From Escherichia phage PH1062: a stretch of DNA of 49,857 bases. The translations under genes were made by a program, and so were the position numbers. How positions within the stretch are numbered: position 1 is the stretch's first letter; every line of letters begins with the position of its first letter. The stretch lies in the sequence record OQ680139.1. One strand, 5' to 3'. The notes beneath the pieces are model-generated. The model ran no database searches and was not told where the DNA came from. It saw only the letters and a list, made by a program, of their open reading frames with translations. Positions 1 to 49,857 of the stretch are shown here, piece by piece.

Positions 1-2910
1 TGCTTCAGTTTCGGTGGCTAGCGCCGTCTGAACTTCAGTTATGGAAGCTACAACCTCATCATCAATCTGTGCTTTAAGCTGCGTGAGAGCCTCTACGCGA
101 GCCTGAGTTTCGGTGGCTAGCGCCGTCTGAACTTCAGTTACGGAAGCTACAACCTCATCATCAATCTGTGCTTTAAGCTGCGTGAGAGCCTCTACGCGAG
201 CCTGAGTTTCATCGGCAATAAGATTCACTGCCTGAACGTATTCAGCCTTTCTCTTTCCGTTCTCCTTGGTCATTCGTCGAACGTCAGTATTGTTTGCAAG
301 TGCGTTTTCAAGAATTGACTCCGCCTGCGCCTGAATAGCTCTGTTTGAATCAATGGCGTTCTGCTGTAGGTACTTAAACCCTTCGGAATTCTCAATATCT
401 ACCTTAATTTCACCAATGATCGATTCCACGTCATCACTAGCCATTCCTCGAACAATGTCAGACCAGTCAGAGACGTTCCCAATCCTGTCTACCAATCTCG
501 CCCTGTACCAGTTCACATATCCTGCAGGTAGTGTCGAGTGCCAGTACTCGTACTGAGGGTATGGGATCATTGTTAACAGGCTTGCGTTCTCCTCGCCAGT
601 GTGACCTCCAGCGCCATTATCTGGTATCTGCTGCAACTCAGTGTAGGCAGTGTCTCCAGAACCTTCTGGGAAACCCCATTTAACCCGTATCCCAAACACC
701 TGGTCGTCAGATGCAGTTATGACTGTTGGTTTATCTGGCTTCCCAATCTTACCAGTCAATCCTACGCTGACAACTTCAGACCATGGCGACGTATTGCCAC
801 CGCTTGAAATGCTCCTTACACGAACGTGATAATTACCCGCATAAATCCCTTCAACCTCAACCTCTGAGTTAGCAGTGCGCGGTACATTCATCCAGTTACC
901 GTTATCCTTTCTCCACTGCACGTCGTACTTGCTCGCGTACTGAACTTTATCCCACCCTATCACCATTGTCTCAACGCTCATCCCCTGCACAATTCGAGAG
1001 TATGATGAAACAACAATGTTTTTTGGTGGCTGCATGTTGTCAGGATCTACAATACTGGTTGGTCGGTCATCAATATTTACTCCGTAGTCGATCTCGTCGT
1101 ATTTATTGGGATCATACTCAACCGCCGTAATGCTGTATGTGAACTCATCATCACCGTCACCCTTCGTGATTCCAGTTACGACGTATTGCTGCAAAGCCAC
1201 GTCAGTTCTGTCGATTGCGAAAACAGTGTTGGGCTTAACATCAAAACCAAAACCAACGTTAAGCTCAATGGTTTTCCCGTCCGCAGATACTTTTGAAATC
1301 GTCCGACGCACCGGATTTCCGTCAGCCTTGTTCACGATAATGAAATCACCAGCTCGCGCATCGACCTTAAAGTGTGTGAACACTTGCAGGCCTGACACTT
1401 CCATCACACGACCTGATAACGAAAGCGTCAGGTTACTTGACCAGAAGTTATCAGCGATTGCTACCACGTCGCCAATCATCGGAATCATACCCTCAAGGCC
1501 AGTAGCAAAACTCACCGTCGTGCTGCGAAGGTTTGTTTTGAGAACCCAACGGCCCCGTCGATTCGCTTCACTGCGTCGAGTGCATCCGATCGCCGTGATG
1601 CTTGTCGGGTTATGGCCGAAGCGCAATGAAGCGTTAAGGTCGAACACGCCCTCAATGTCCTGGCTGTACATGTTCTGCTCGTCGTCGAACGTGACGTTGC
1701 AGGTTGTGTACATGCTTTTTTCACTTGCGAACGTATAGGCAAATGAGCCATCAACGACGTTATCGTTAGTAAAAATATAAGACGCCTCTCTCGGTCGGTC
1801 GATGACAATTGAAAGGCTCTCTCCGTTCCAGAAGCTCATTCCTCGGAATATTGAGCAAATGTCTCGCACAAGATTGTACGCTTCAACCTGAGACTGAATC
1901 ACCACATCGCAAAGATAGCGAGGCTCCGTTCCTCCGTGACCGTCTGGCACTTTTTGGTCGCAGTATTGACCAGCGTCATATAGTGACCACTTATCAACCG
2001 CGATTCCCAATTCCCGTTGGTCGAGTCCGTAGCGCTGATTGGTGATCAAATCATAAAGCACCCACGCCGGATTATTTGACCATGCTTTTTTAAAACTCCC
2101 ATCCCATGTGCCGTTATACTCTCGAAGCTCTGGATTATAGTTGCTCGGAACGTTAATGAGCTTCCATTTCTTTTTCGTGCTAATGCTTGGGATTTGCGGG
2201 AATAGATCGCTGTTAAACTCGACGTAAACAAGACCAGTCAGAGGGTAACGGAATTTAGCATCAACCACTTCGGCATAAGACTGAATGTTTATCGTGTCAA
2301 CGACGCGCGCATCAGTTGAATCAGCCGTAACGCGGCGCACACGCAATAGAACCTGACTATTGAACGTTGGTAGGTCGATTCGCTTTGTTTTGTCATATCC
2401 GCTAATTGTCTTTCCGTCGATTACGTCTGATAAAACTTCCTGGTAGTTCCCGCCATCAACCGCCATATCTACGGCCCACTTCACGACCACGCCGACCATA
2501 TCTCCGTTTTCTTTCGTTGTAACGCCGCGAGGCATCAGGATCTTGACGCGGACGGCTGAAAGCTGCTTATTCGTCACCGAAATCACGTAAGGCGTCGTTG
2601 TTTTCAATTCACGACCTACAGTGAACTCAGCCGCCGTGTCGTTGAAGCCTTTGATGTAATCCTGAGTCTGCGTTCCAGGGCGAAACTCAGCCGTTACGCC
2701 TTCATAGTTAACCTCGCCGGATGGTGCAATTACAGGAACATCATTAAGATATAAGTCCTTTAATGAGAAATTCGCGTCAACCTCGCCATCACTAACAGCG
2801 AGCAAAACCTTAATCTTGTTGATTGAGATCAGGTTATCTTCCATCTCCTGTGGGGTATGCGGCTTGCTGCTGCCACCCTTTCGGCCAGTCACTACACTAT
2901 TTTTAATCAT
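1..2910 (-). CDS. Central tail fibre / host-specificity protein, lambda gpJ-like (5' ~970 codons; ORF runs off the window start and resumes at 49177..49857)
   Basis: Minus-strand frame open from ATG at 2908-2910 to nt 1; absent from ORF track because no stop lies inside the window. My translation contains ...GTEPRYLCDVV..., matching the gpJ pattern GTEPRITCNAY from memory. Confidence 0.85.
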   Translation of the reverse strand, partial: MIKNSVVTGRKGGSSKPHTPQEMEDNLISINKIKVLLAVSDGEVDANFSLKDLYLNDVPVIAPSGEVNYEGVTAEFRPGTQTQDYIKGFNDTAAEFTVGRELKTTTPYVISVTNKQLSAVRVKILMPRGVTTKENGDMVGVVVKWAVDMAVDGGNYQEVLSDVIDGKTISGYDKTKRIDLPTFNSQVLLRVRRVTADSTDARVVDTINIQSYAEVVDAKFRYPLTGLVYVEFNSDLFPQIPSISTKKKWKLINVPSNYNPELREYNGTWDGSFKKAWSNNPAWVLYDLITNQRYGLDQRELGIAVDKWSLYDAGQYCDQKVPDGHGGTEPRYLCDVVIQSQVEAYNLVRDICSIFRGMSFWNGESLSIVIDRPREASYIFTNDNVVDGSFAYTFASEKSMYTTCNVTFDDEQNMYSQDIEGVFDLNASLRFGHNPTSITAIGCTRRSEANRRGRWVLKTNLRSTTVSFATGLEGMIPMIGDVVAIADNFWSSNLTLSLSGRVMEVSGLQVFTHFKVDARAGDFIIVNKADGNPVRRTISKVSADGKTIELNVGFGFDVKPNTVFAIDRTDVALQQYVVTGITKGDGDDEFTYSITAVEYDPNKYDEIDYGVNIDDRPTSIVDPDNMQPPKNIVVSSYSRIVQGMSVETMVIGWDKVQYASKYDVQWRKDNGNWMNVPRTANSEVEVEGIYAGNYHVRVRSISSGGNTSPWSEVVSVGLTGKIGKPDKPTVITASDDQVFGIRVKWGFPEGSGDTAYTELQQIPDNGAGGHTGEENASLLTMIPYPQYEYWHSTLPAGYVNWYRARLVDRIGNVSDWSDIVRGMASDDVESIIGEIKVDIENSEGFKYLQQNAIDSNRAIQAQAESILENALANNTDVRRMTKENGKRKAEYVQAVNLIADETQARVEALTQLKAQIDDEVVASVTEVQTALATETQARVEALTQLKAQIDDEVVASITEVQTALATETEA
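7..204 (-). repeat. Two tandem in-frame 99 bp repeats (33 aa each) inside the J-like gene
   Basis: Units at ~7-105 and ~106-204 differ by one nt (ttatgg vs ttacgg); encode TQARVEALTQLKAQIDDEVVAS(V/I)TEVQTALATE twice. Confidence 0.9.
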
Positions 2911-2957
2911 GATGTTTAGCCTTTCGTGCGATTTATCGAAGTTTCATTATACAGGCA

Positions 2958-2981
2958 CAAAAAAACCCGCGCAAGGCGGGT
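2958..2981 (-). terminator. Intrinsic terminator between tail assembly gene I-like and J-like
   Basis: Hairpin ACCCGC-gcaag-GCGGGT followed by a T-run on the minus strand. Confidence 0.55.
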
Positions 2982-2986
2982 TTGAC

Positions 2987-3580
2987 TTATGCCATATCTT
3001 CCGCAACGCTGTAGGCTGAGAATGTTGCTCCTCCTACCGTTCGATACCCGTATGGCACGGGGATCGGGTTTCCTGCTGCTGTCGTGTTTACTGCGCCGCC
3101 GAAGGCGTATGATGGTTTGTTCTTGCTGCTTTGAACCTCCATCTTTGAGCCGCCTTGCTGTGGTGAAATCATCTGCATTACCCCACCTAGCACCATTGCG
3201 CCGCCCATCATAAATGCTGACGTTGCGAACGTACCCATTAGCGCCAGTGATGCACCGCCTGTGTAGAATGCCGCAACCATCATTACAGCGCCAACAACAA
3301 TCTGGAACATCCCGCCGTTTTTTGATCCAGTAGGGATCGGAATAATGCGGACCTCTTTAGCACAAACGAATGCCGACTCGTCATGCTGGCCTACATTCTT
3401 TCCGTCAACGAATACTGCGAAGTGCATACGTGAGCCGATCTCACTCTGCATGAACTCCTTAAACCCTTCCACCTGGGATGATAACGCCCGAATTGCTTCG
3501 GGGTATGAGTCAACGTCGAACTTATGGAAAACACCGAATCGACGGCCCAGCGAGCCGGATAGCTTGATTGTTTTTAACAT
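2987..3580 (-). CDS. Tail assembly protein, lambda gpI-like
   Basis: 197 aa; SKNGGMFQIVVGA and Gly/Ala-rich hydrophobic tail resemble gpI; sits between K-like and J-like genes. Confidence 0.6.
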   Translation of the reverse strand: MLKTIKLSGSLGRRFGVFHKFDVDSYPEAIRALSSQVEGFKEFMQSEIGSRMHFAVFVDGKNVGQHDESAFVCAKEVRIIPIPTGSKNGGMFQIVVGAVMMVAAFYTGGASLALMGTFATSAFMMGGAMVLGGVMQMISPQQGGSKMEVQSSKNKPSYAFGGAVNTTAAGNPIPVPYGYRTVGGATFSAYSVAEDMA

Positions 3581-5436: not shown

Positions 5437-8343
5437 TTACGCTCCTGCTTTTCCGTTGATGTAATTGTAAACTTCGCCACCCTGGGAACATGATTCCTGA
5501 ATCATTTGCTTGAAAATCATTTTCACGCCCTGCTCCATGCCCTTCGGATCGCTACCGTTATTGATGCTAACAGGGATGCTACCAATTGTCACGCCGCCAG
5601 CCATGATTGCACTACCGCCGCCACCGCTTGTTGTTCCACCAACCACGCCGCCATTAGCATAACCGCGCATCATTCGATAAAGGTTATCGACGCCAATTCG
5701 CTTGGTAGCTTCCTTGGTCATGACAAACTCACCTTTATGAACCGTGCCTGCTGGCTCATACTTGCCGCCATCTCCGGTGTAACCGCCAGTGGCGAACCAC
5801 CCTGAGTTAGCGAAAGAGAATCCCTTGCCGCTGCCTATTCCCATTCCTGATAGTGAGTTAAAGATTACCATCTGCGTGATCATCTTAATGATCTGGCTGA
5901 TAATGCTTTTTGCAAAGTCTGCAAAGTTGGCCTGCCCCGTCATCAAGAACTCAGTCATCATGTCTGTCAAACCGTTCAGGGCGTTACTTGCGATATTTTC
6001 TACGTTTCCGTACATATCCATAGCACTCTCGCCGTAGTCCGCAAATGCTTTCTGCGCCCCAGCAAGCCAGTCTCCGCGCTTCTCATCCTCGTTGGCGTAA
6101 TACTCGTTCTGCTTGTCAATCATTTTCTTGAGCGCTTCATCATCCTGACCGCCGCCCTTAGCCATGTACTCCGCTCGGATCTTCTCAAGCTGAATCTGGC
6201 GCTCTGCCTCAAGTGTACCCATGGCGCGCGTGGCGTTAAGGCTTTTGCTCGCTGCGTCAATCTGCATGATGAACTTCATTGAGTCGTCATTCAGTTTGTT
6301 GATCTGCTCCTGCTTAACAATCTGATCACCAAGCTCTGCCTTTTCCTTCGCCAACGAGAGCACCTTTTGCTGACTGGCAAGCAATGCTTTTTCCTCGTTG
6401 GTCAGCTTACGCTTACTCTGTGCATCCTGGAGGATTGAAATCTGAGCCTCAGTAGCCCACAAAGCACGGCGCTGGCTTGAGATCTTGTCGTTAATCGACT
6501 TGTGATCTTCCAAAACTTTAAGCTGAGCTTTGAGAACGTAAAGTTCTTTATCAAGCTGCTCGGTAGCGCCCTTGGTTACTGCGCCGTTGCTCTTAGTTTT
6601 CTTCCGGTTCTTTTCCTCAATTTCTTTAGCTTCCTTCGCTACGGCTTCCTTTGTTTCCTTGGCGTATTGCTTCTCAAGATCACGTCGGCCCTTAAGCGCA
6701 TTGATGTAACCCATCTCGCCCTTTTCGACTCTCGCGTTAATAACATCCAGATCTTTTGCAAGGCTGTCGTAGGTGTCCTTGGAGTTCTTAACGATAGTCT
6801 GCTGTTCGTTGAGAATATCCTTACCGAAATCACTCATACCTGGCAGGCTTTGCGTGGCCTTGATTGCAGAGGCGATAAAGTTAGAAATGTATTCGTCACC
6901 CTTGGCGAGAATCATTTTAACCTGAATCACCGTGCCGCTAACCACATCAATGATGAGGTTTAGAGCACCAAGCGTATGATCTCCAACCCACCCCCAGGCG
7001 TCTGATGACCATTTCTTAATGTCATTCCACATCTTTTCAAGCGGCGTTGCAGTACCTGCAATCTTGCTCATGCGTTCTTCCATGGTGTCGGCAAACAGCT
7101 TGGTCGCCTCCGTCACAGCTTCGGTTTCGCCCTTGGCTTTAACAATCCCGTTAATGTAGGTCAATTGACCTTTCTCAAGGAAGTTGTATTGCTCGTTCAG
7201 CTTCGCCAGTCCTTTTACCGGATCATCTGCAATCTTGCCGAAGTCACTGATAATATCGCTCGTCGCTCGACCCGTTGCGGCTGACCATTCAGCGGTAGCG
7301 CGGGTAATATTCCTGATTTGGTCCTGAGTGTACTTACCACTTTTCGCAAGCTCAGTAGCAATTTCTCGCACAGATCCGATAGTCGCGTTGCTGGTATCCG
7401 CAATTTTGTTTGCAATCTGGTCAAGGTCCGCCGCGCTCGCCGCTGCAAATCCGCCAGTCTCAATCAAGGCGTTTTTCATATCTGTGATGGAGCGGTAGGA
7501 GTCGTAACCAGCTTTAGCAAGGCCAGCAAGTGCGATACCCATAGCGCCCATACCAACCGTTACCGGATTAAGGTAAGAAAGCAAAACTTTAAACGTATTC
7601 CCAACACCGCCGAACGAATCCTTGATCTGCCCGCCCTGCTGGATTGCAACCAGCCATACAGGCATACCGGAAGCAAGGGAGGTAACAACGTCAGTGATCT
7701 GCATTGGCAAGATGCGCAGCGCGTTCTTGTACTCGCCAGCGGAAAGGCCAGCCGCATTTGTCGCTACAGTCTGCTTGTTCATCGCTGCAATTAAAGGTGC
7801 GGCCTGAGTCGATACGCCAAGCTGTGCCGCCTTCAATTCGAGAAGCTCAGTCTTGGTCATTGTCGCAGCGTTAGCTTGTTCTTGCAGTGATTTAAGGAAC
7901 CTGTCAGCGTCCTTTGTTGCCGCCTCTTTGGCTTTTGAGTTAGCCATAGCCGCACGGCCTTCTTCGGTCAGCGCCATCTTGGATCGGTTAAGCGCATTGA
8001 TCTGAGTTTCAATCATGCTTGACAGATTGAAGAACTCGGCGTCTGGAACGAGGCCTTTACTCCAGAGGTTATCCAGGTCAACGCTCGCCTTCTGCAACTG
8101 GCGCATTTTTCCGATTGTAGGATCAATGGCTTTCTCTACGTCGGCAAATTCTTTCTTCTGGCGCTTAACCTCGTTGTTGAACTCTTTCATCTTCTGCTTT
8201 GCTACTTGCTCAGCATCAATGAAATTGTCAAAGCTCTTTCCGGCTGTGTTGTTCGCCCTGGATAAGTCATCCAGAGATTTAACCGCCGCATCAACCTGGG
8301 ATACGTCAACCCCAAGCGATAGCCCTGCAAATTTATCTGTCAT
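5437..8343 (-). CDS. Tail tape measure protein
   Basis: 968 aa, long coiled-coil-rich sequence with Gly-rich C-terminal segments; follows the G/G-T chaperone pair. Confidence 0.85.
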
Positions 8344-41091: not shown

Positions 41092-41121
41092 ATCATACCA
41101 ACCGTAACATGAGATAGTCAA
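41092..41121 (-). promoter_or_regulatory. Sigma70-like promoter TTGACT-18-TATGAT for the HNH gene
   Basis: Hexamers on the minus strand; -35 overlaps the primase start codon region. Confidence 0.45.
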
Positions 41122-42047
41122 TGATGGATATGTATCAAAAAGAGGAAGTTATACCTTACATGAAGGGTCTTTGGAGGGAAGCTCTGCAATCAATATGTGG
41201 CCTTGATAACTCATACTTCACGAAGCGACATGGGCCATGCCCGCATTGCTTTGGAAAGGACCGTTTTCGCTGGACTGACAATATTAACACCCCAGGCGAC
41301 GGCGGCGCGATCTGTAACTCATGCGGAAACGACTCAGGGATCGGTTGGTTGATGAAGTTAACTGGTATGCCATATAGCGAATGCATAAACATCCTGGGGA
41401 GATTTCTTGGAAAGGTTCCGCAGGAATACATTGTCAAGGCGAACAAGAAAGCGCGCAGGACTCCGGTAGCTGGCATCAATGTCATGATGGCAGATCATGA
41501 AGCGGTAATGAAAGTTATGGGGCGCACGGAGAAGCGTGTAAATACGCCACTAAGCATGTTTGAGTCACTGCCTACTGAATCATTCGATGTCGGCGTAAAA
41601 CTTCGTGAGGATGGCGGTGAGAGCGTATTTCACACCATACCGTGTCAACTTGTGCATGAGGATGGTCTTGATGACGAGTTTTGCAATATTTTGATTATTG
41701 ATGAAGAAGGAAGGGAGTCATTTTACGCGAAGAAATACACGAGTTGCTCAGTTGCCGTGACTGGTAAAACTGAAAAGGCGATATACTTATGCCTGAACTG
41801 GATTGATGCTCAGCATATTGCATTTCACACAAAGCAAGAAGTGTGGGCCTGTTTCACCCCTGAAAACCTCGAGATGGTTGCGTACAGATACAAAGGGGAT
41901 CGGGAGGTAATGGTGGCATGCGAACCGTCTGACAAAGAAACTTTGTATATGGCGGATGACCGACAATTAAAAATAATCATCCCGAACCCGGGAGGATACC
42001 GTTCAGGAATGCAAGCCAAGCTGTTCTCAGCAAGCGATCTGCTCTAA
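41121..42047 (+). CDS. DNA primase (zinc-ribbon plus catalytic domain)
   Basis: 308 aa; N-terminal GPCPHCFGKDRFRWTD...AICNSCG zinc-binding motif. Confidence 0.6.
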   Translation: MMDMYQKEEVIPYMKGLWREALQSICGLDNSYFTKRHGPCPHCFGKDRFRWTDNINTPGDGGAICNSCGNDSGIGWLMKLTGMPYSECINILGRFLGKVPQEYIVKANKKARRTPVAGINVMMADHEAVMKVMGRTEKRVNTPLSMFESLPTESFDVGVKLREDGGESVFHTIPCQLVHEDGLDDEFCNILIIDEEGRESFYAKKYTSCSVAVTGKTEKAIYLCLNWIDAQHIAFHTKQEVWACFTPENLEMVAYRYKGDREVMVACEPSDKETLYMADDRQLKIIIPNPGGYRSGMQAKLFSASDLL

Positions 42048-42105: not shown

Positions 42106-42110
42106 CTATG

Positions 42111-42130
42111 TTTAGCAATTCGTGCTATTT
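42111..42130 (-). promoter_or_regulatory. Family element in reverse orientation at the tail fibre promoter (operator-like position)
   Basis: TTTAGCAATTCGTGCTATTT on the plus strand between two plus-strand genes; ends 19 nt before ATG 42149. Confidence 0.45.
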
Positions 42131-42148: not shown

Positions 42149-44758
42149 ATGGCTTTATACAGACGCGGTACAGCATCAATGGATGCAGACGGAACGGTTC
42201 ACGGAACCGATACAAAATGGAACGATCAGCTTGCTCTGATTCGCGTAGGTGCAACTATCGTATTCCTGGAGCAACCAATTAAGCTGGCGGTAATCAGCGA
42301 TATTGTGAGCGACACAGAGCTAAAGGCTATCTCTACGGATGGTCAGACTGCCGCTGACGGAAAGTATGTAATCTTGCTTAACGATTCATTGACCGTTAAC
42401 GGGCTTGCGCAAAACGTTGCTGAGACGCTTCGGTACTACCAGAGCAAAGAGACCGAGATTGCTGGGGCAATGGATATCATTGCGAGTCTGGATATGGATA
42501 ACCTTAACCGTATCATTGAGGAAATTAAGGCGAACAAATCAGCCGCAGAATCTGCGCAGAATCAAGCGGAGCTTGCTCGCGACGCATCCGCTGCAAACCG
42601 TGATGCCGCAAGTCAATTTGCAACATCGGCAGAGCAAAGCAAGAATGCAGCAAAGACCAGTGAGACGAACGCCAACAACGCAAAGACCGACGCAGAGACA
42701 GCTAAATCACAGGCAGTAACTGCTAAAGACCAGGCTAAAGTATTTCGTGACGAGGCAGAGCAACTCGCAAATGGTGCCGATGCATCAAATAAGGTTGATA
42801 AAGTTGGGTCCGCTATCAACACCCCAACCAGCGTTGCTGACATGCTAAAAAGATTGCGAGACACGATAAAGGGTGGATTCTGGCGAGTTGATGATATAAG
42901 TCAGTTTCCATCCGGGCAAATGGCCCCGTTCAGATACGGTTCAGGGATTTGCGGCGGCGCTGGTGACACATTTTTTGCGTTTAACGTTGACTGGCAGTCC
43001 TCTAGCGTAAAGGTTTTCTCGGGAAACAATGACGCTATCAACGGAGAGTCTGGATATATTAGCTCTATTGAGCTGGCTAAACTTGGTACAAATGGGGACT
43101 TGGCGATCGCGGACGGCGGGACGGGAGCATCTAACGACCAGGGGGCGCGCGCCAACCTTCAGGCGATGCACGAGCGTCAAGCACCGTTGTTAAGCGAAGA
43201 CCTTAACGTATTAAAAGGGGATAAGGCTGGATTTTATTACACTAACATAAGTGCGAACGCGACCACGGATAAAAACTACCCAGTAGGCAAGGCTGGATGC
43301 CTTCTGGTCCAGAAAACTGGAGCTAACGACCCAAAAAGCTGCGTACAGACCTACACCGAATATAACAGCGGGCGAAGATTCATGCGGTGGATCTCGAATG
43401 GCGCGACAGACACCTGGTCGAACTGGTACGAACTGTATAACTCTGGGTCGTCGCCGACTTTTAATGGTAAAGTGACGGTGCCGCAGGTTGCGGTTGGCAC
43501 GGCTACTCTGCGGCCGGTAACTCCCGGAGAAGGAAGCGGAGACGGGGTTGTTTGGGAATCCAGCAACGCCACGGAGGCGAGTTTTGGCATTGCGAATGTT
43601 GGCGGCGGGTCTGCGGTGTTCCACAACTATTCAAAACCAGCAAACGGGTCTGGCGTGGCTACCGGAGTGCTTATTGGTGGGTACGGGTCGCGCCCGTGGA
43701 CTGGTACTACATATACGGACCACTCAAACGTGTCGCAGCACTTCCTCATGGACGGGACCGCTTCGGATACTAACCACGGCGGCTGGTTTAGGTTGCTAAC
43801 AACCCCATTGAATAAGACCAATGCAGATCGTAGGCAAACATTCGCGACCAGCAACAACGGCGACCTTTATATAGGTTTCGATGTACCTATGGGGCTTTAT
43901 AAGATAACGCAGGAAAGTTACAACGGATTGGAAATATTAAACGGTCGCGGTCTTAAACAAGTAAATAACACAGCTAATGAAATAGCCTTAATCACCCCAC
44001 GAAACGGGGCAACAGCTAATATAAATTTCAGAGGTGTAGCTTTTAATGGCTCAATGACCGGAGTTAAAGGTGCCACTCAGCAGGGAGACAACTTGTGGCT
44101 GTCTTTTGCAGGGCATGACGGTGTAAGATTCACGGGTGCCGCTGCCGGTATGCGGATTCAGGCGTCGACTGGATGGTCAGCCACAAACACGCAATGCGGA
44201 ATAACGTTTGCGACAACGAAAGCAGGGTCCACGCAGAGGGTGGATCGGTGGAGCATTACGAGCGACGGGTCGCTGTCCCCAGCTGCGGACAACGCATACC
44301 CGATCGGCAGTGCAGTCTCCCGTGTTAGTGCGGTCTACGCAGCAAACGGGGCCATACAGACCTCGGACGCAAGACTCAAGACCGAGGTTAGGGGTTTAAC
44401 AGAGGAGGAGATGGGCGCCGCTAAAGCAATCGCCCGCGAGTTTGGCTTTTTCCGGTGGCTTGAGAGAGTAGCCGAAGAGGGCGACGATGCGAGGCTCCAT
44501 GCAGGTATTACCGTGCAGAAAGTGATGGAAATCATGCGGTCTTACGGTCTGGACCCCTTGAAGTATGGATTCGTGTGTTACGACGAATGGGAGGAGACTT
44601 CAGAGGTTATCAGTGACCCCGATGATAATTCGAAGTCGACGATCAATATAACCCCCGCAGGCAATAGATATAGCTTGCGATATTCGGAACTAAACGTGTT
44701 TATCGCCAGAGGACTTGAGCAAAGAATCTCAGAACTGGAGGCTAAGTTAGCTGGTTGA
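42149..44758 (+). CDS. Side tail fibre with C-terminal intramolecular chaperone (peptidase S74) domain
   Basis: 869 aa; Ala-rich coiled-coil repeats; autoproteolysis-type motif SDARLK followed by HAGITVQKV...YSLRYSELNVFIARGLEQRISELEAKL. Confidence 0.75.
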   Translation: MALYRRGTASMDADGTVHGTDTKWNDQLALIRVGATIVFLEQPIKLAVISDIVSDTELKAISTDGQTAADGKYVILLNDSLTVNGLAQNVAETLRYYQSKETEIAGAMDIIASLDMDNLNRIIEEIKANKSAAESAQNQAELARDASAANRDAASQFATSAEQSKNAAKTSETNANNAKTDAETAKSQAVTAKDQAKVFRDEAEQLANGADASNKVDKVGSAINTPTSVADMLKRLRDTIKGGFWRVDDISQFPSGQMAPFRYGSGICGGAGDTFFAFNVDWQSSSVKVFSGNNDAINGESGYISSIELAKLGTNGDLAIADGGTGASNDQGARANLQAMHERQAPLLSEDLNVLKGDKAGFYYTNISANATTDKNYPVGKAGCLLVQKTGANDPKSCVQTYTEYNSGRRFMRWISNGATDTWSNWYELYNSGSSPTFNGKVTVPQVAVGTATLRPVTPGEGSGDGVVWESSNATEASFGIANVGGGSAVFHNYSKPANGSGVATGVLIGGYGSRPWTGTTYTDHSNVSQHFLMDGTASDTNHGGWFRLLTTPLNKTNADRRQTFATSNNGDLYIGFDVPMGLYKITQESYNGLEILNGRGLKQVNNTANEIALITPRNGATANINFRGVAFNGSMTGVKGATQQGDNLWLSFAGHDGVRFTGAAAGMRIQASTGWSATNTQCGITFATTKAGSTQRVDRWSITSDGSLSPAADNAYPIGSAVSRVSAVYAANGAIQTSDARLKTEVRGLTEEEMGAAKAIAREFGFFRWLERVAEEGDDARLHAGITVQKVMEIMRSYGLDPLKYGFVCYDEWEETSEVISDPDDNSKSTINITPAGNRYSLRYSELNVFIARGLEQRISELEAKLAG

Positions 44759-46365: not shown

Positions 46366-47416
46366 CTTCCAGGATGTGCTTGAACTGCTTTTTAATCCAA
46401 TCAGGAGTCTCAAGCTCAATCTCTGGTTCGCCGTTGCTGTATGAAGGCCATACGTCATTCGCTTCGCACATTGAGAAAGTATGAATAACGCTCATGTACT
46501 GCGCACGACCAATCTTAAGCTGATCGCTACTCATGCGGTAAGCCATAGGAAAGTAAGGCTCTTTCTTCTCCTGGGCCAGCAAGCGCACAACCACAGGTCG
46601 CGTTTCCTCAAAGCATTTAACGAACAGGTCACGCTGCAATGCCATCTTGAGGTAATATCCAAGGTTGAACGCCAGGCGCGGGAACTCGGTCGGGTTGGCG
46701 CTCATTGTCGTTTTGTAATCAGTGATGACGACGATTTCAGGGTGAATCTCAGGATCGTAACCCATGCGCCGGATGGCTTCTGGATCATTAATGATGTCAA
46801 CATGGTCAAGTCGCACCTTGACTTTAACGCCACAGATTACGCCGAACAAAGAATACTCACGGAATGCCGTTTCGCTGTTCATGCAAGCGTTATGCTCAGG
46901 AATCATTTCAAGAACCTGGCGCATACTGACGCAAGCGTCGTAGTCTTCCGCCTTAACCAGTTCCACGCCATCTGCCCACGCCTGACATTGTGCGATCATA
47001 TCAATCAGCCACATGACGTTGAGGTCTTCGCCGCAATCAACCATCATCTTGATCAGTTCTGGATATTGCTTGCCGCTTGTACCAGTCAGGCCAAATGATT
47101 TTAATTTCGTTGCCAATGCCGCCTGGCTAGTGATTACGTTTTCAATCTCGCTATCTTTCGGTGCGCGGCGATACTTGCGTTCAAACAGTGCCTTACTCTC
47201 GAAATTGGTATGCGACTGCGTACCGAAGACAAGTGCCTTAGTCGTCGAGTTCATTTCAAACTTCCACGCCGCAGGGCAAGTACTGTGGATCTTGCTGAGT
47301 GACGATCCTGATACGTACTTGGCGGTCCATTCGTCTTTGCTGTGATAGAAATCGTTGCTCATTTCTTCTGACGTGAAATATTGAAAAAGTGGCTTAGTCA
47401 TCTCTTTAATCCTCAT
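46361..47416 (-). CDS. PD-(D/E)xK family exonuclease (RecE / lambda-Exo-like partner of Erf)
   Basis: 351 aa; IVVITDYKTT fits the D-x(n)-(D/E)-x-K core. Confidence 0.5.
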   Translation of the reverse strand: MRIKEMTKPLFQYFTSEEMSNDFYHSKDEWTAKYVSGSSLSKIHSTCPAAWKFEMNSTTKALVFGTQSHTNFESKALFERKYRRAPKDSEIENVITSQAALATKLKSFGLTGTSGKQYPELIKMMVDCGEDLNVMWLIDMIAQCQAWADGVELVKAEDYDACVSMRQVLEMIPEHNACMNSETAFREYSLFGVICGVKVKVRLDHVDIINDPEAIRRMGYDPEIHPEIVVITDYKTTMSANPTEFPRLAFNLGYYLKMALQRDLFVKCFEETRPVVVRLLAQEKKEPYFPMAYRMSSDQLKIGRAQYMSVIHTFSMCEANDVWPSYSNGEPEIELETPDWIKKQFKHILEA

Positions 47417-47434
47417 TTGTTGTTGATGTGGGTA

Positions 47435-47462
47435 ACTATACGCGCTTGGTTGCCTTAGTCAA
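47435..47462 (-). promoter_or_regulatory. Sigma70-like early promoter TTGACT-16-TATAGT (leftward)
   Basis: Hexamers just upstream of 47416; GTGGTTACATGT abuts the -35. Confidence 0.5.
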
Positions 47463-47686
47463 GTGGTTACATGTAGATATTTGTAATCACGTGTATGCAA
47501 TGGCGTTAGTTACATAAAATGGCTATCCAGCCCAGCTATGGCTTGATGTAAACATCGTGTATATCGTGTATACCACTTTTCGCGGATGGTGCATTAGTGT
47601 ATGCGTGATTAGATACTGTATAAATATACATATTAGAAATTTATAAGCGGAATACTCTATAGAAGTAGTTACACGATATACACAGT

Positions 47687-47757
47687 AATATATATATAAT
47701 AATAATAAGAGTAAAAGGTTGATATATATAGATATTTTAATGTAACTAATGCGTAAA
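47687..47757. repeat. AT-rich conserved block, copy 2
   Basis: Same sub-motifs and order as copy 1 at 29069-29145. Confidence 0.7.
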
Positions 47758-47855
47758 TCTGCGTAACAGCGCGTATATCATTTTCAGCGGAAGAGATTGT
47801 ATACATCGAGTTACATCGGTTACGTGTATATCGTTGCATTTGCATACTTGACACC

Positions 47856-47900
47856 AAAAAGCACGAATTGCTAAAACTCAATTAATGGTTGGTGTATAGT
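47856..47900 (+). promoter_or_regulatory. Family promoter Q (rightward): element, 18 bp, TATAGT
   Basis: AAAAGCACGAATTGCTAAAA; followed by CACTCAATCGAAACGAA. Confidence 0.5.
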
Positions 47901-47939
47901 CACTCAATCGAAACGAAATTCACTTGCTAAGGACTCAAA

Positions 47940-48182
47940 ATGACTAACTTCATCAAATCGGCAATCATAGCAGCAGCAGTAATCATGACCGTAGGTTGTT
48001 CTTCTGGTCCACGACCTGATGGATGGTGTGCCACTCAGGCAAATGGTGTTTGCGTAGCCAAGTGGAGGGGCGGCGTAGTTGTTCCAGCAGGTGAGGTTGA
48101 TGTTCGCTATGCTGGTATTGAATCAAAAGCAGGTGGCGGATACGGCGGTTCAGTTTCAGATCACGGATCTAAGGAGTGGTAA
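47940..48182 (+). CDS. Small lipoprotein, Cor-like superinfection-exclusion candidate
   Basis: 80 aa; signal peptide with lipobox (…IMTVGC); size and position beside tail fibre genes as for Cor in T1/phi80-type phages. Confidence 0.45.
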
Positions 48183-48183
48183 T

Positions 48184-49146
48184 ATGGGGCAGGGTATATT
48201 GATCGATCTTAACGATGGAAGGCCAGCTATGGAGATAACTGCAGGATTGAGAGCACCTGCTGTGACTGGTTCAATAAATACTAACGGGCTTTCTACTCCG
48301 GCTAATTCATGGGATTTTGGATTATCCATGTCACCTGGCTCAACGGCTTTCTGCCTACCAACAAAGGCGGTTCACGTTGATGCTTATGATGTAATACCAG
48401 AAGTGTATTATATGAACGGATTTCAAAAGGTTAATGATGGTGTAGGAAGGATAACGCTAAGTAACTTCAACGGTGCCAATGGTCGAATAATTGACTTTGG
48501 AGGTAACTGCTTTGAAATACTACCAGCTTCATCCTCATCAAGCCCCGGTATACTAGTTGAAAACTCGACTGACTTCCTGGCCATATCAAGTAATTCAAGG
48601 CTAATGTCTGCAGCGTGGGTTGGAGGGATGCAAGTAAATGGAGCAGCATCTCTTCCTGTTAGTGGTATTCCTTTCGGTAAGTGGGATAACCCAAACGTGT
48701 CGCTTGAGAGTGATGGGAGTACGATATGGTGCAGGGATGCAAATTACGGCGGAATTGATGACGTTGGCGCAAGCACTTACGTACAGCTGGTTATATTCAA
48801 AAATGAGCCGCCGCCAGCAGGCCCGGGTATTACAATGTCAAACGGATCTGGCCAGATTGTTTTCTCTAGTGTTCGCAGGCCTTTCGTTCTTGGTGGGTTC
48901 ATTCAGATTAACAATGGATACCAGTCAATCAATGGTGGATTCTTCCCGCTTCTTAGGTGCGGTGCTACGGCTAGAGTTACTGGAGGCTATAACAACCTAC
49001 GTTATAAGGGCGTTTGCATGTCTGGAGGTTCTGTCAGGGCAGTTCCCGGCTCTGTAATAGGTAACTACTCGACTCAGACTGGCGCGCAATTCCCATTCGA
49101 CACAAACATATCAATGGCACTTCCATTTATTCCTAACTTCTACTAA
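48184..49146 (+). CDS. Hypothetical protein, candidate receptor-binding tail protein (start moved to Met after lipoprotein stop)
   Basis: 320 aa Gly/Ser/Asn-rich; AAGGAG RBS; ORF-track start 48079 overlaps the lipoprotein gene. Confidence 0.45.
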   Translation: MGQGILIDLNDGRPAMEITAGLRAPAVTGSINTNGLSTPANSWDFGLSMSPGSTAFCLPTKAVHVDAYDVIPEVYYMNGFQKVNDGVGRITLSNFNGANGRIIDFGGNCFEILPASSSSSPGILVENSTDFLAISSNSRLMSAAWVGGMQVNGAASLPVSGIPFGKWDNPNVSLESDGSTIWCRDANYGGIDDVGASTYVQLVIFKNEPPPAGPGITMSNGSGQIVFSSVRRPFVLGGFIQINNGYQSINGGFFPLLRCGATARVTGGYNNLRYKGVCMSGGSVRAVPGSVIGNYSTQTGAQFPFDTNISMALPFIPNFY

Positions 49147-49170
49147 AAGAAAAAGCCCCGAAAGGGGCTT
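49147..49170. terminator. Bidirectional terminator between 48184..49146 and the J-like gene
   Basis: GCCCC-gaaa-GGGGC flanked by A-run and T-rich tract. Confidence 0.65.
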
Positions 49171-49176
49171 AATCGT

Positions 49177-49857
49177 TTACCACACTCCAACTACAACTCT
49201 ACCTCCTCCAGGTAGGTTTACCGTGATTCCATTCCCGTTAATCTGGACCGTATCATTCACGCCATTAAAAGCAAAATTACCTTCAGCAGCCCTAACCTCA
49301 CCTCGAACAACTACGTTATTGAACTCACAAGCCCCGTCCTTGCCTATGCCCCATCCTTGAGATCCAGCAACATAGTTATTTGATTGAATTCTGTTACCAA
49401 TCTTGGCATTAGTGATTGAGCCATCCTTGATCACAGCGCTCTGGATGAACACTTGGTTATTCTCAACCACGAAAGGCAATGCCCACTGACCGGAACCAGA
49501 ACCAATCCCGTTACTGATCGCGAATCTGTTAGCGTCAAATATGAACTGACTCTTAACACCAGCACCGCTTCCAACAAGTTCCATGCTCATCCCTGCGCTA
49601 TATTCAACCCCATTATATTTTAGACCTAACTTAACACCGTACTGAGCGCCAGCGGATTCCGCATCAACCCAGGAGTCAAGTTTTTCATTCAGTGCTGCCT
49701 GCGTATCGCCAAGTTGAGCGCTCAAAGCTGTGTCGGCAGTAGTCCTTGCTTCAGTTTCGGTGGCTAGCGCCGTCTGAACTTCAGTTATGGAAGCTACAAC
49801 CTCATCATCAATCTGTGCTTTAAGCTGCGTGAGAGCCTCTACGCGAGCCTGAGTTTC
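49177..49857 (-). CDS. Central tail fibre J-like protein, 3' end (same gene as 1..2910 across the circular junction)
   Basis: ORF track 49177..49725 is an internal-Met fragment; the frame stays open upstream to the window end, and the window end equals the window start. Confidence 0.8.
   Translation of the reverse strand, partial: ETQARVEALTQLKAQIDDEVVASITEVQTALATETEARTTADTALSAQLGDTQAALNEKLDSWVDAESAGAQYGVKLGLKYNGVEYSAGMSMELVGSGAGVKSQFIFDANRFAISNGIGSGSGQWALPFVVENNQVFIQSAVIKDGSITNAKIGNRIQSNNYVAGSQGWGIGKDGACEFNNVVVRGEVRAAEGNFAFNGVNDTVQINGNGITVNLPGGGRVVVGVW
49747..49857. repeat. 111 nt terminal overlap identical to nt 1-111 (circular contig closure)
   Basis: Exact identity including the ttatgg variant of the first repeat copy. 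Confidence 0.85.

Follow-up and report, generated by a model that had tools for sequence, protein, structure and literature searches.

Does the two-gene operon beside the central fibre gene of this phage encode a receptor-binding protein (RBP) together with a lipoprotein that closes the receptor to later phages and, if so, which outer-membrane protein do the two products address? The first-pass annotation of the window (the whole 49,857-nt stretch of DNA analyzed here) had proposed a pair of this kind and had implied that the phage depends on FhuA. The pairing of an exclusion lipoprotein with an RBP was supported by the homology of the two products to Rtp45 (PDB 9RPS, chain D) and to the RBP of phage Oekolampad (PDB 9RPT, chain C), respectively. 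The implied dependence on FhuA was not, as these homologues are partners of LptD/LptE and no similarity to T5 Llp and pb5 or to T1 gp31 was observed. Judged from sequence comparison, we consider it highly probable (about 0.9) that the operon is an LptD-type host-recognition module, composed of an RBP and an exclusion lipoprotein, of a T1-like coliphage (Drexlerviridae, Nouzillyvirus-like).

The features of the locus are listed in Table 1. As the first-pass annotation had it, a gene for an 80-aa lipoprotein is directly coupled to one for a 320-aa protein. Both ORFs are present, and their junction reads TAA-T-ATG, with the stop and start codons one base apart and no overlap; in relatives, the two genes overlap by one base. 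The junction GAGTGG-stop-ATG was unchanged in all subtypes compared. From the 1-nt spacing, together with the location of the second Shine-Dalgarno sequence inside the conserved K-E-W codons, we infer that the two genes are co-transcribed from one phage-family promoter and translationally coupled. Both ORFs matched protein families over their full lengths and hence are not chance ORFs, and the homologues of the 320-aa protein all begin at an equivalent M-x-Q-G-I in the alignment. The convergence of the operon with the J-like gene was likewise verified, the minus-strand stop codon of J being located 30 nt from that of the RBP gene. Six relatives (SU57, Rtp, OzMSK, Rogue1, pSf-2, and RuthEpting) share this gene order, and in each the operon likewise converges with J.

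Table 1. Coordinates of the operon, its upstream elements, and the neighboring J-like gene in the window.
Feature	Position	Strand	Basis or remark
20-bp family element AAAAGCACGAATTGCTAAAA, dyad (T/A)AGCA-N5-TGCTA	47857-47876	+	Repeated motif; putative promoter element
-10-like hexamer TATAGT	47895-47900	+	18 nt downstream of the family element; read from sequence
Leader CAATCGAAACGAA	47905-47917	+	After TATAGT; recurs downstream of several family copies
Shine-Dalgarno AAGGA of the lipoprotein gene	47929-47933	+	6 nt 5' of the ATG; read from sequence
Lipoprotein gene, 80 aa	47940-48182	+	ORF and PF24052 family match
Shine-Dalgarno AAGGAG of the RBP gene	48171-48176	+	Within the conserved C-terminal Lys-Glu-Trp codons of the lipoprotein
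RBP gene, 320 aa, DUF6453 family, OzMSK/Rogue1 subtype	48184-49146	+	ORF and PF20051 match; ATG at 48184, stop at 49144-49146
Hairpin AAGCCCC-GAAA-GGGGCTT	49153-49170		In the 30-nt gap between the convergent stop codons
J-like central fibre gene, about 1196 aa	49177-49857, continuing past the window end to ATG 2910	-	PF09327 (Phage_Tail_Tip), 2e-42
J C-terminal tail FAFNG..TVQINGNGITVNLPGGGRVVVGVW, last ~45 residues	49180-49314	-	Co-varies with the DUF6453 RBP family

Three further ORFs overlapping or flanking the two genes were considered and set aside. A TTG-started ORF of 355 aa (48079-49146) in the mechanical ORF list was rejected because it overlaps the lipoprotein gene and because the homologues start at the equivalent of the ATG at 48184. 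An out-of-frame ORF internal to the RBP gene (48638-49057) and a low-complexity 70-aa ORF with a TTG start on the minus strand (47669-47881), unannotated in the corresponding stretch of P817, were treated as spurious. Upstream of the lipoprotein gene, the window contains a gap of 523 nt without a convincing ORF, whereas a DNA methylase gene is inserted at this place in OzMSK. No match was found in an Rfam scan of positions 47300-49300 at E values up to 1, and NCBIfam gave no meaningful match for either the lipoprotein or the 320-aa protein. In P817, the nearest relative, the lipoprotein gene is unannotated.

Next, we describe the region upstream of the operon. The earlier statement that the operon stands under a family promoter was sustained as an observation, since the element 5' of the lipoprotein gene belongs to a set of 14 copies. 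A mismatch search with the motif AATAGCACGAATTGCTAAAC detected these 14 copies in the window at no more than three mismatches, against 0.04 expected by chance. In 11 of them, a TATNNT hexamer follows 18-20 nt past the element, and a CATCGAAACGAA-like leader often comes next after the hexamer. The family element is thereby placed at about -51 to -32, with the dyad TAGCA-N5-TGCTA centered near -42. No -35 hexamer was found at the proper spacing upstream of TATAGT, which explains why a generic sigma-70 scan missed this hexamer; the scan returned nothing useful upstream of the operon, and its match count was not above that of shuffled sequences. Such an arrangement would be more typical of a promoter that needs an activator than of a plain sigma-70 promoter. 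It is doubtful whether TTGACA at 47848-47853, 17 nt from TAAAAC, forms a second, overlapping promoter, as this -10 sequence is weak. The family element is also conserved in P817 and OzMSK, again 5' of the lipoprotein gene. The motif string was looked for in the full text of the literature as well, and no paper turned up.

The 320-aa protein matched the DUF6453 family (PF20051) over its full length, with an E value of 2.3e-136 and a score of 454 bits (cut-off, 25). When 50,697 phage records were searched in translation, 411 of them were found to carry a homologue. The closest ones compared were those of P817 (97.5% identity), OzMSK (OzMSK_038, 93.4%), Rogue1 (87.5%), and pSf-2 (70%), while Rtp44 was 39-40% identical and the proteins of FritzHoffmann and VogelGryff about 40%. 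The likeness to OzMSK_038 and Rogue1_0039 (93% and 88%) extends over all 320 residues and includes the locus layout and the partner lipoprotein, which carries the same insertion; the window RBP differs from OzMSK_038 by 21 substitutions scattered along the protein. With an ORF of 963 bp, the gene occupies the bona fide RBP locus beside J, where ORFs of about 930-960 bp are expected. The protein had been called Gly/Ser-rich, which is true to a mild degree only (13.4% Gly and 10.3% Ser). In public records and PHROGs, the RBP is labeled "membrane protein / moron" or "hypothetical".

Among solved structures, the RBP aligned with chain C of PDB 9RPT, the Oekolampad (Bas18) RBP, at an E value of 6e-67, with residues 1-320 matched to residues 1-321. 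The two proteins (the Oekolampad RBP also being chain C of 9RPW and 9RQI) are homologous over their full lengths and share the N-terminus and the NSTDF-AIS, IPFxxW, GGIDDV, and C-terminal IPNxY motifs, although they are just about 44-47% identical. Gln298 of the window RBP aligns with Gln299 of the Oekolampad RBP, which hydrogen-bonds Ser350 of LptD, and the Oekolampad RBP was solved deep inside an open state of LptDE (PMC12685063). According to the same study, published AlphaFold models of RBP-LptDE-type complexes are wrong in detail. Biochemical or structural work exists for two RBPs, Rtp44 and RBP_Oeko, to which the window protein is just 39-44% identical. The homology points to an LptD-binding terminal RBP as the most likely identity of the 320-aa protein.

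The 80-aa product has the features of an exported lipoprotein. A signal peptide (residues 1-19), a lipobox with Cys20 encoded at 47997-47999, and a Ser at position +2, that is, a non-Asp residue as required for outer-membrane sorting, are all present, and lipidation is predicted. The residue at position -3 of the lipobox varies among relatives (T, A, I, or M), all within the allowed set. The protein matched PF24052 (Phage_lipoprotein) at 6.2e-39 with 132 bits against a cut-off of 27, covering residues 1-80 of 80, and no other Pfam match was above noise. Its sole match among solved chains was PDB 9RPS chain D (1e-34), which is Rtp45 of phage Rtp in complex with LptDE.

Compared with Rtp45 of the Rtp genome record (UniProt Q333D9), the precursor is 76% and the mature part 84% identical. 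Residues 20-57 are identical at 35 of 38 positions, the differences being N35S, R43K, and G44N. The two proteins share the length class, the signal peptide, the lipobox, Cys30 and Cys38 (the disulfide pair of Rtp45), the central hairpin region, and the C-terminus SKEW, to which Rtp45 itself adds one more residue, Asn; both genes are located directly upstream of a DUF6453 RBP gene in an operon convergent with J. Residues 30-35 and the putative hairpin of residues 39-57 (an alignment-based placement), corresponding to the LptD-contact segments of the Rtp45 structure, are conserved but for these three differences. In contrast, the window lipoprotein differs from Rtp45 in having, within a divergent C-terminal third, several substitutions and a Gly-rich five-residue insertion at the place where Rtp45 reads KGSSG, in having Thr in place of Met at position -3 of the lipobox, and in being partnered with an RBP just 40% identical to Rtp44. 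The insertion is common to the lipoproteins of the window, P817, SU57, OzMSK, and Rogue1. More distantly, the lipoprotein of RuthEpting, a Dhillonvirus-type phage, was 39% identical to that of the window; the exclusion lipoprotein of Oekolampad, a Dhillonvirus, is reported to be 35% identical to Rtp45 (PMC12685063). In the cryo-EM structure of Dunbar et al., Rtp45 is bound on the periplasmic side of LptD, flanked by LptE and LptM; a hairpin of Rtp45 rises inside the barrel lumen and pushes extracellular loop 4 of LptD aside by up to 20 Å, preventing RBP binding (PMC12685063). These relationships make an LptD-blocking superinfection-exclusion protein of the Rtp45 type the most likely identity of the lipoprotein. 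For both products, the fold is settled by the full-length homology to a solved structure.

The neighboring J-like fibre is 77% identical to Rtp43. Its ORF continues without interruption from the window end into the window start, showing that the 49,857 bp of the window form a phage genome closed into a circle. The hairpin between the two stop codons is followed by a T-run on the minus strand; on the plus strand there is the hairpin alone, with an A-run before it. We read this hairpin from its sequence as the terminator for J. A terminator at the same place is annotated in relatives, on both strands in SU57 and on the plus strand in Rogue1.

The C-terminal tail of J was compared among Drexlerviridae, Dhillonvirus, Queuovirinae, and Salmonella and Klebsiella phages, plus T1. 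The tail FAFNG..TVQINGNGITVNLPGGGRVVVGVW was present in all of the DUF6453-carrying phages compared (12/12, window included) and was replaced in T1, which is of the FhuA type; T1 J and pSf-2 J are nearly identical until about 60 residues from the end. On the side of the RBP, conservation in the alignment is highest in residues 1-20. It is probable that the J tail is the docking site for these N-terminal ~20 residues. A 2026 preprint has proposed that the C-terminal tip of GpJ mediates compatibility with the RBP encoded at the locus (bioRxiv 10.64898/2026.04.02.716166), and our comparisons of the J tail and the RBP N-terminus are consistent with, and already anticipated by, that work.

We also examined whether the subtypes of the two proteins track each other among eight phages, and they do not. 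Between the window and Rtp, the mature lipoprotein is 84% but the RBP 40% identical; between the window and pSf-2, the values are 41% and 70%, and between pSf-2 and RuthEpting, 69% and 44%. This independent reassortment is a pattern from a small sample, short of a test. The comparison suggests that recombination occurs at the junction of the lipoprotein and RBP genes. The mismatch of subtypes would fit a pair whose members work on opposite faces of one receptor and need not co-evolve.

As for the receptor, Maffei et al. reported that the locus downstream of gpJ sets the terminal receptor specificity of small siphophages and that seven BASEL phages with this RBP module lose infectivity on lptD mutants (PMC8594841). 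Black et al. found that OzMSK, isolated on FhuA-disrupted, T1-resistant strains, fails on two lptD loop mutants and that an engineered deletion of LptD loop 11 leads to OzMSK resistance (PMC13035648). The association of DUF6453-type RBPs with LptD was confirmed by the 2026 preprint (bioRxiv 10.64898/2026.04.02.716166). A rival reading is that both proteins target FhuA, as pb5 and Llp of T5 or the Cor cassette of T1 do, with the lipoprotein blocking FhuA and the 320-aa protein binding it. Against this reading stands the isolation of OzMSK, whose RBP is 93% identical to that of the window, on hosts with FhuA disrupted. The general logic is the same in both cases, namely a small outer-membrane lipoprotein and an RBP beside the fibre gene, and BLASTP did return a short match of the lipoprotein to T1 Cor. 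This match (12/17 residues), however, is confined to residues 9-25, which are the hydrophobic core of the signal peptide and the lipobox. BLASTP of the RBP against T1 gp31 gave an E value of 0.52, that is, no similarity. The only hits of the PDB searches were Rtp45 and the Oekolampad RBP; T5 pb5 was not returned with the RBP, and T5 Llp was not returned with the lipoprotein even at E values up to 10, although FhuA-Llp (8A60) and FhuA-pb5 (8A8C) are cited as solved structures. The FhuA locus of T1 is also arranged differently: two of its genes run in the direction of J, and cor lies on the other strand. We regard a FhuA-directed pair as very improbable. What the window pair has in common with T5 pb5/Llp and the Cor systems of T1, phi80, and N15 is its logic: the RBP recognizes a protein of the outer membrane, and a small lipoprotein, anchored in that membrane and facing the periplasm, disables this receptor. 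The pair differs from those systems in gene layout, in the lack of sequence kinship beyond the signal peptide, and in the receptor, which is a TonB-dependent transporter in those systems and the LPS translocon for the window pair; moreover, Llp works through long-range allostery, whereas Rtp45 displaces the LptD loop EL4 sterically (PMC12685063). By its sequence relationships, the pair is pb5/Llp-like in logic, lies outside those families, and has a different receptor.

Two other readings keep part of the assignment and alter the rest. The RBP may have drifted to another outer-membrane receptor, or J may supply a second one, so that LptD would not be the sole or the true terminal receptor. The RBP subtypes do differ at about 60% of their sequence, some of the positions at which the window RBP departs from its closest relatives are on the surface, and at least one relative with an Rtp44-type RBP, Bas01, requires NupG, through a J domain, in addition to LptD (bioRxiv 10.64898/2026.04.02.716166). 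Yet DUF6453 members from at least four subtypes, 40-47% identical, have all been mapped to LptD by experiment (those of Bas01/02, Oekolampad, FritzHoffmann, VogelGryff, and OzMSK), the nearest experimentally tested relative is 93% identical, and the linked lipoprotein is of the LptD-binding Rtp45 type. A changed or additional receptor is thus unlikely, in our estimation, for this phage. The lipoprotein, for its part, could be a component of the virion or of its assembly, such as an RBP chaperone or a tail-tip accessory protein, rather than an exclusion factor. Translational coupling of its gene to the RBP gene would agree with such a role, as would the label "structural" in the SU57 database record. 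A lipidated outer-membrane protein is, however, topologically apart from tail assembly in the cytoplasm, and Rtp45 was co-purified with LptDE and visualized on its periplasmic face (PMC12685063). Furthermore, no lipobox ORF was found beside the RBP gene at the loci of Queuovirinae, Salmonella, and Klebsiella phages, so that the lipoprotein is dispensable for RBP assembly. An assembly role has, in our view, hardly any likelihood.

On the reading that we prefer, an LptD-type module of an RBP and an exclusion lipoprotein, the two proteins would act as follows. The DUF6453 protein would be the terminal RBP and would sit, without a covalent link, at the far tip of the J-like central fibre; its N-terminal ~20 residues and the C-terminal J tail that matches them would probably make the attachment. 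The loops at the RBP tip would enter the extracellular side and the lumen of LptD/LptE, leading to irreversible adsorption; this step is predicted from the homology to the Oekolampad RBP-LptDE complex and to the LptD-dependent OzMSK. After export, the 80-aa product would be lipidated on Cys20 and, with Ser at position +2, sorted to the inner leaflet of the outer membrane. There, by homology to Rtp45, it would bind the periplasmic side of LptD between LptE and LptM, and its beta-hairpin would extend up the barrel lumen and displace extracellular loop 4. LptD would thereby be barred from the open conformation that the RBP needs. As a result, superinfecting LptD-dependent phages would be excluded, and progeny would not be lost on cell debris.

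A more specific version of this scheme, which we offer tentatively and hold to be rather unlikely, is that RBPs of the OzMSK/Rogue1 type engage LptD differently from the Oekolampad/Rtp pair, that the insertion-bearing lipoprotein does likewise, and that exclusion is receptor-wide. The different engagement of the RBP would be through other loops or another conformational state of LptD, and the altered contacts of the lipoprotein would be with LptD, LptE, or LptM. The idea of receptor-wide rather than phage-specific exclusion is drawn from the apparently free reassortment of lipoprotein and RBP subtypes around an invariant junction. If it is true, the spectrum of cross-exclusion among LptD phages would be predictable from the lipoprotein type alone.

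The LptD type of RBP/exclusion-lipoprotein pair is already known in genetics and structure, and near-identical genes are present in public phage genomes. Our analysis makes two small additions, namely the apparently independent reassortment of exclusion and RBP subtypes and the finding that the C-terminal tail of J changes together with the family of the RBP. The practical value of the window is in correct annotation and receptor prediction, and current understanding is unchanged. From sequence alone, it is predicted that the phage uses LptD, infects fhuA (T1-resistant) strains, and is excluded by lipoproteins of the Rtp45 type. Because LptD is both conserved and essential, LptD-binding phages and small LptD-locking proteins are relevant to phage therapy, to "phage steering", and to leads for LptD inhibitors.

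The loci of the lipoprotein and the DUF6453 receptor-binding protein (RBP) were compared among related phages. The closest relative was Escherichia phage P817 (Drexlerviridae, Nouzillyvirus; MZ826699), with 89% nucleotide identity over this region. At about 6343-6585, P817 encodes an 80-aa counterpart of the lipoprotein, which also carries the insertion and is 89% identical as the precursor and 93% in the mature part. This gene is left unannotated in the record. The RBP is labelled as “membrane protein” or “moron, auxiliary metabolic gene” in RefSeq and PHROG, and these labels are misleading. The GAGTGG-stop-ATG junction between the two genes was unchanged in the window (48141-48250) and in the homologous junctions of L002, L003 (P817), L004, L006, and L008. 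The Shine-Dalgarno sequence of the RBP gene is embedded in the conserved codons for K-E-W at the end of the lipoprotein gene, and the lipoprotein C-terminus is thus under double constraint.

The subtypes of the exclusion lipoprotein and the RBP reassorted independently in the identity matrix. No small ORF with a lipobox was found within 1.5 kb of the DUF6453 loci in FritzHoffmann (L009), VogelGryff (L012), Salmonella 29485 (L007), and Klebsiella RCIP0010 (L010), indicating that the pairing of the exclusion lipoprotein with the RBP is optional. The RBP and fibre genes run in the same direction in the Salmonella and Klebsiella phages, rather than being convergent as in the window. Upstream of the lipoprotein gene, a 523-nt AT-rich gap (47417-47939), adjoining an exonuclease VIII-like gene on its other side, contained no convincing gene. 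Relatives have various inserts at the corresponding site: Rtp has rtp46, OzMSK has a DNA methylase, and Rogue1, G8, and ESCO41 have a Rha/anti-repressor-like gene. The site looks like an insertion hot spot. The J-like ORF (about 1196 aa) continued uninterrupted across the window end and start (49177-49857 and 1-2910, minus strand), indicating that the window represents an entire phage genome, circularly permuted and with its ends lying within J.

A 20-bp element, AATAGCACGAATTGCTAAAC, occurred in 14 copies in the window, as compared with 0.04 expected. The element contains a dyad, TAGCA-N5-TGCTA, located near -42, and a -35 hexamer is absent. A TATNNT sequence lies 18-20 nt 3' of the element in 11 of the 14 copies, frequently followed by a CATCGAAACGAA-like leader, and the spacer of several copies holds a GC hairpin with a T-run. 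As judged from the position of the dyad and the missing -35 hexamer, the family resembles an activator-dependent phage promoter class. A full-text search did not find the motif string in any paper of the collection covered. Two copies are oddly placed. One is antisense to both the flanking primase and lateral tail fibre genes, and P817 has a copy at the equivalent position; the other touches the J start codon, leaving no space for a promoter. The end of the lateral tail fibre (…SDARLKTEV…) looks, by eye, like a putative self-cleaving intramolecular chaperone domain.

Coordinates of the features described (window positions unless another record is named)
Feature	Position	Strand	Remark
Primase gene	41121-42047	+	
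Lateral tail fibre gene	42149-44758	+	869 aa
Element copy	42110-42129	-	between primase and lateral tail fibre genes
Element copy	2914-2933	-	immediately adjoins J start codon at 2910
Other element copies (starts)	16796, 22319, 23674, 25373, 27189, 27461, 29644, 30022, 34075, 36088, 37402, 47857		20 bp each, as the two above
Distant DUF6453 homologue, SkaterBoy_Bas90 (L011, PQ850626)	2402-3433		

Kuravirus-like podophages, including SkaterBoy_Bas90, SU10, KarlSchell_Bas89, and other ~77-kb Gordonclarkvirinae podophages, encode remote homologues of the DUF6453 protein, with 24-28% identity at an E-value of about 1e-7. The genes are flanked by tail-fibre genes on one side and by transglycosylase and ejection-protein genes on the other. 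The literature examined named no protein receptor for the Kuravirus-like podophages, and the homologues may hint either at the use of LptD by these phages or at a common tail-tip fold.
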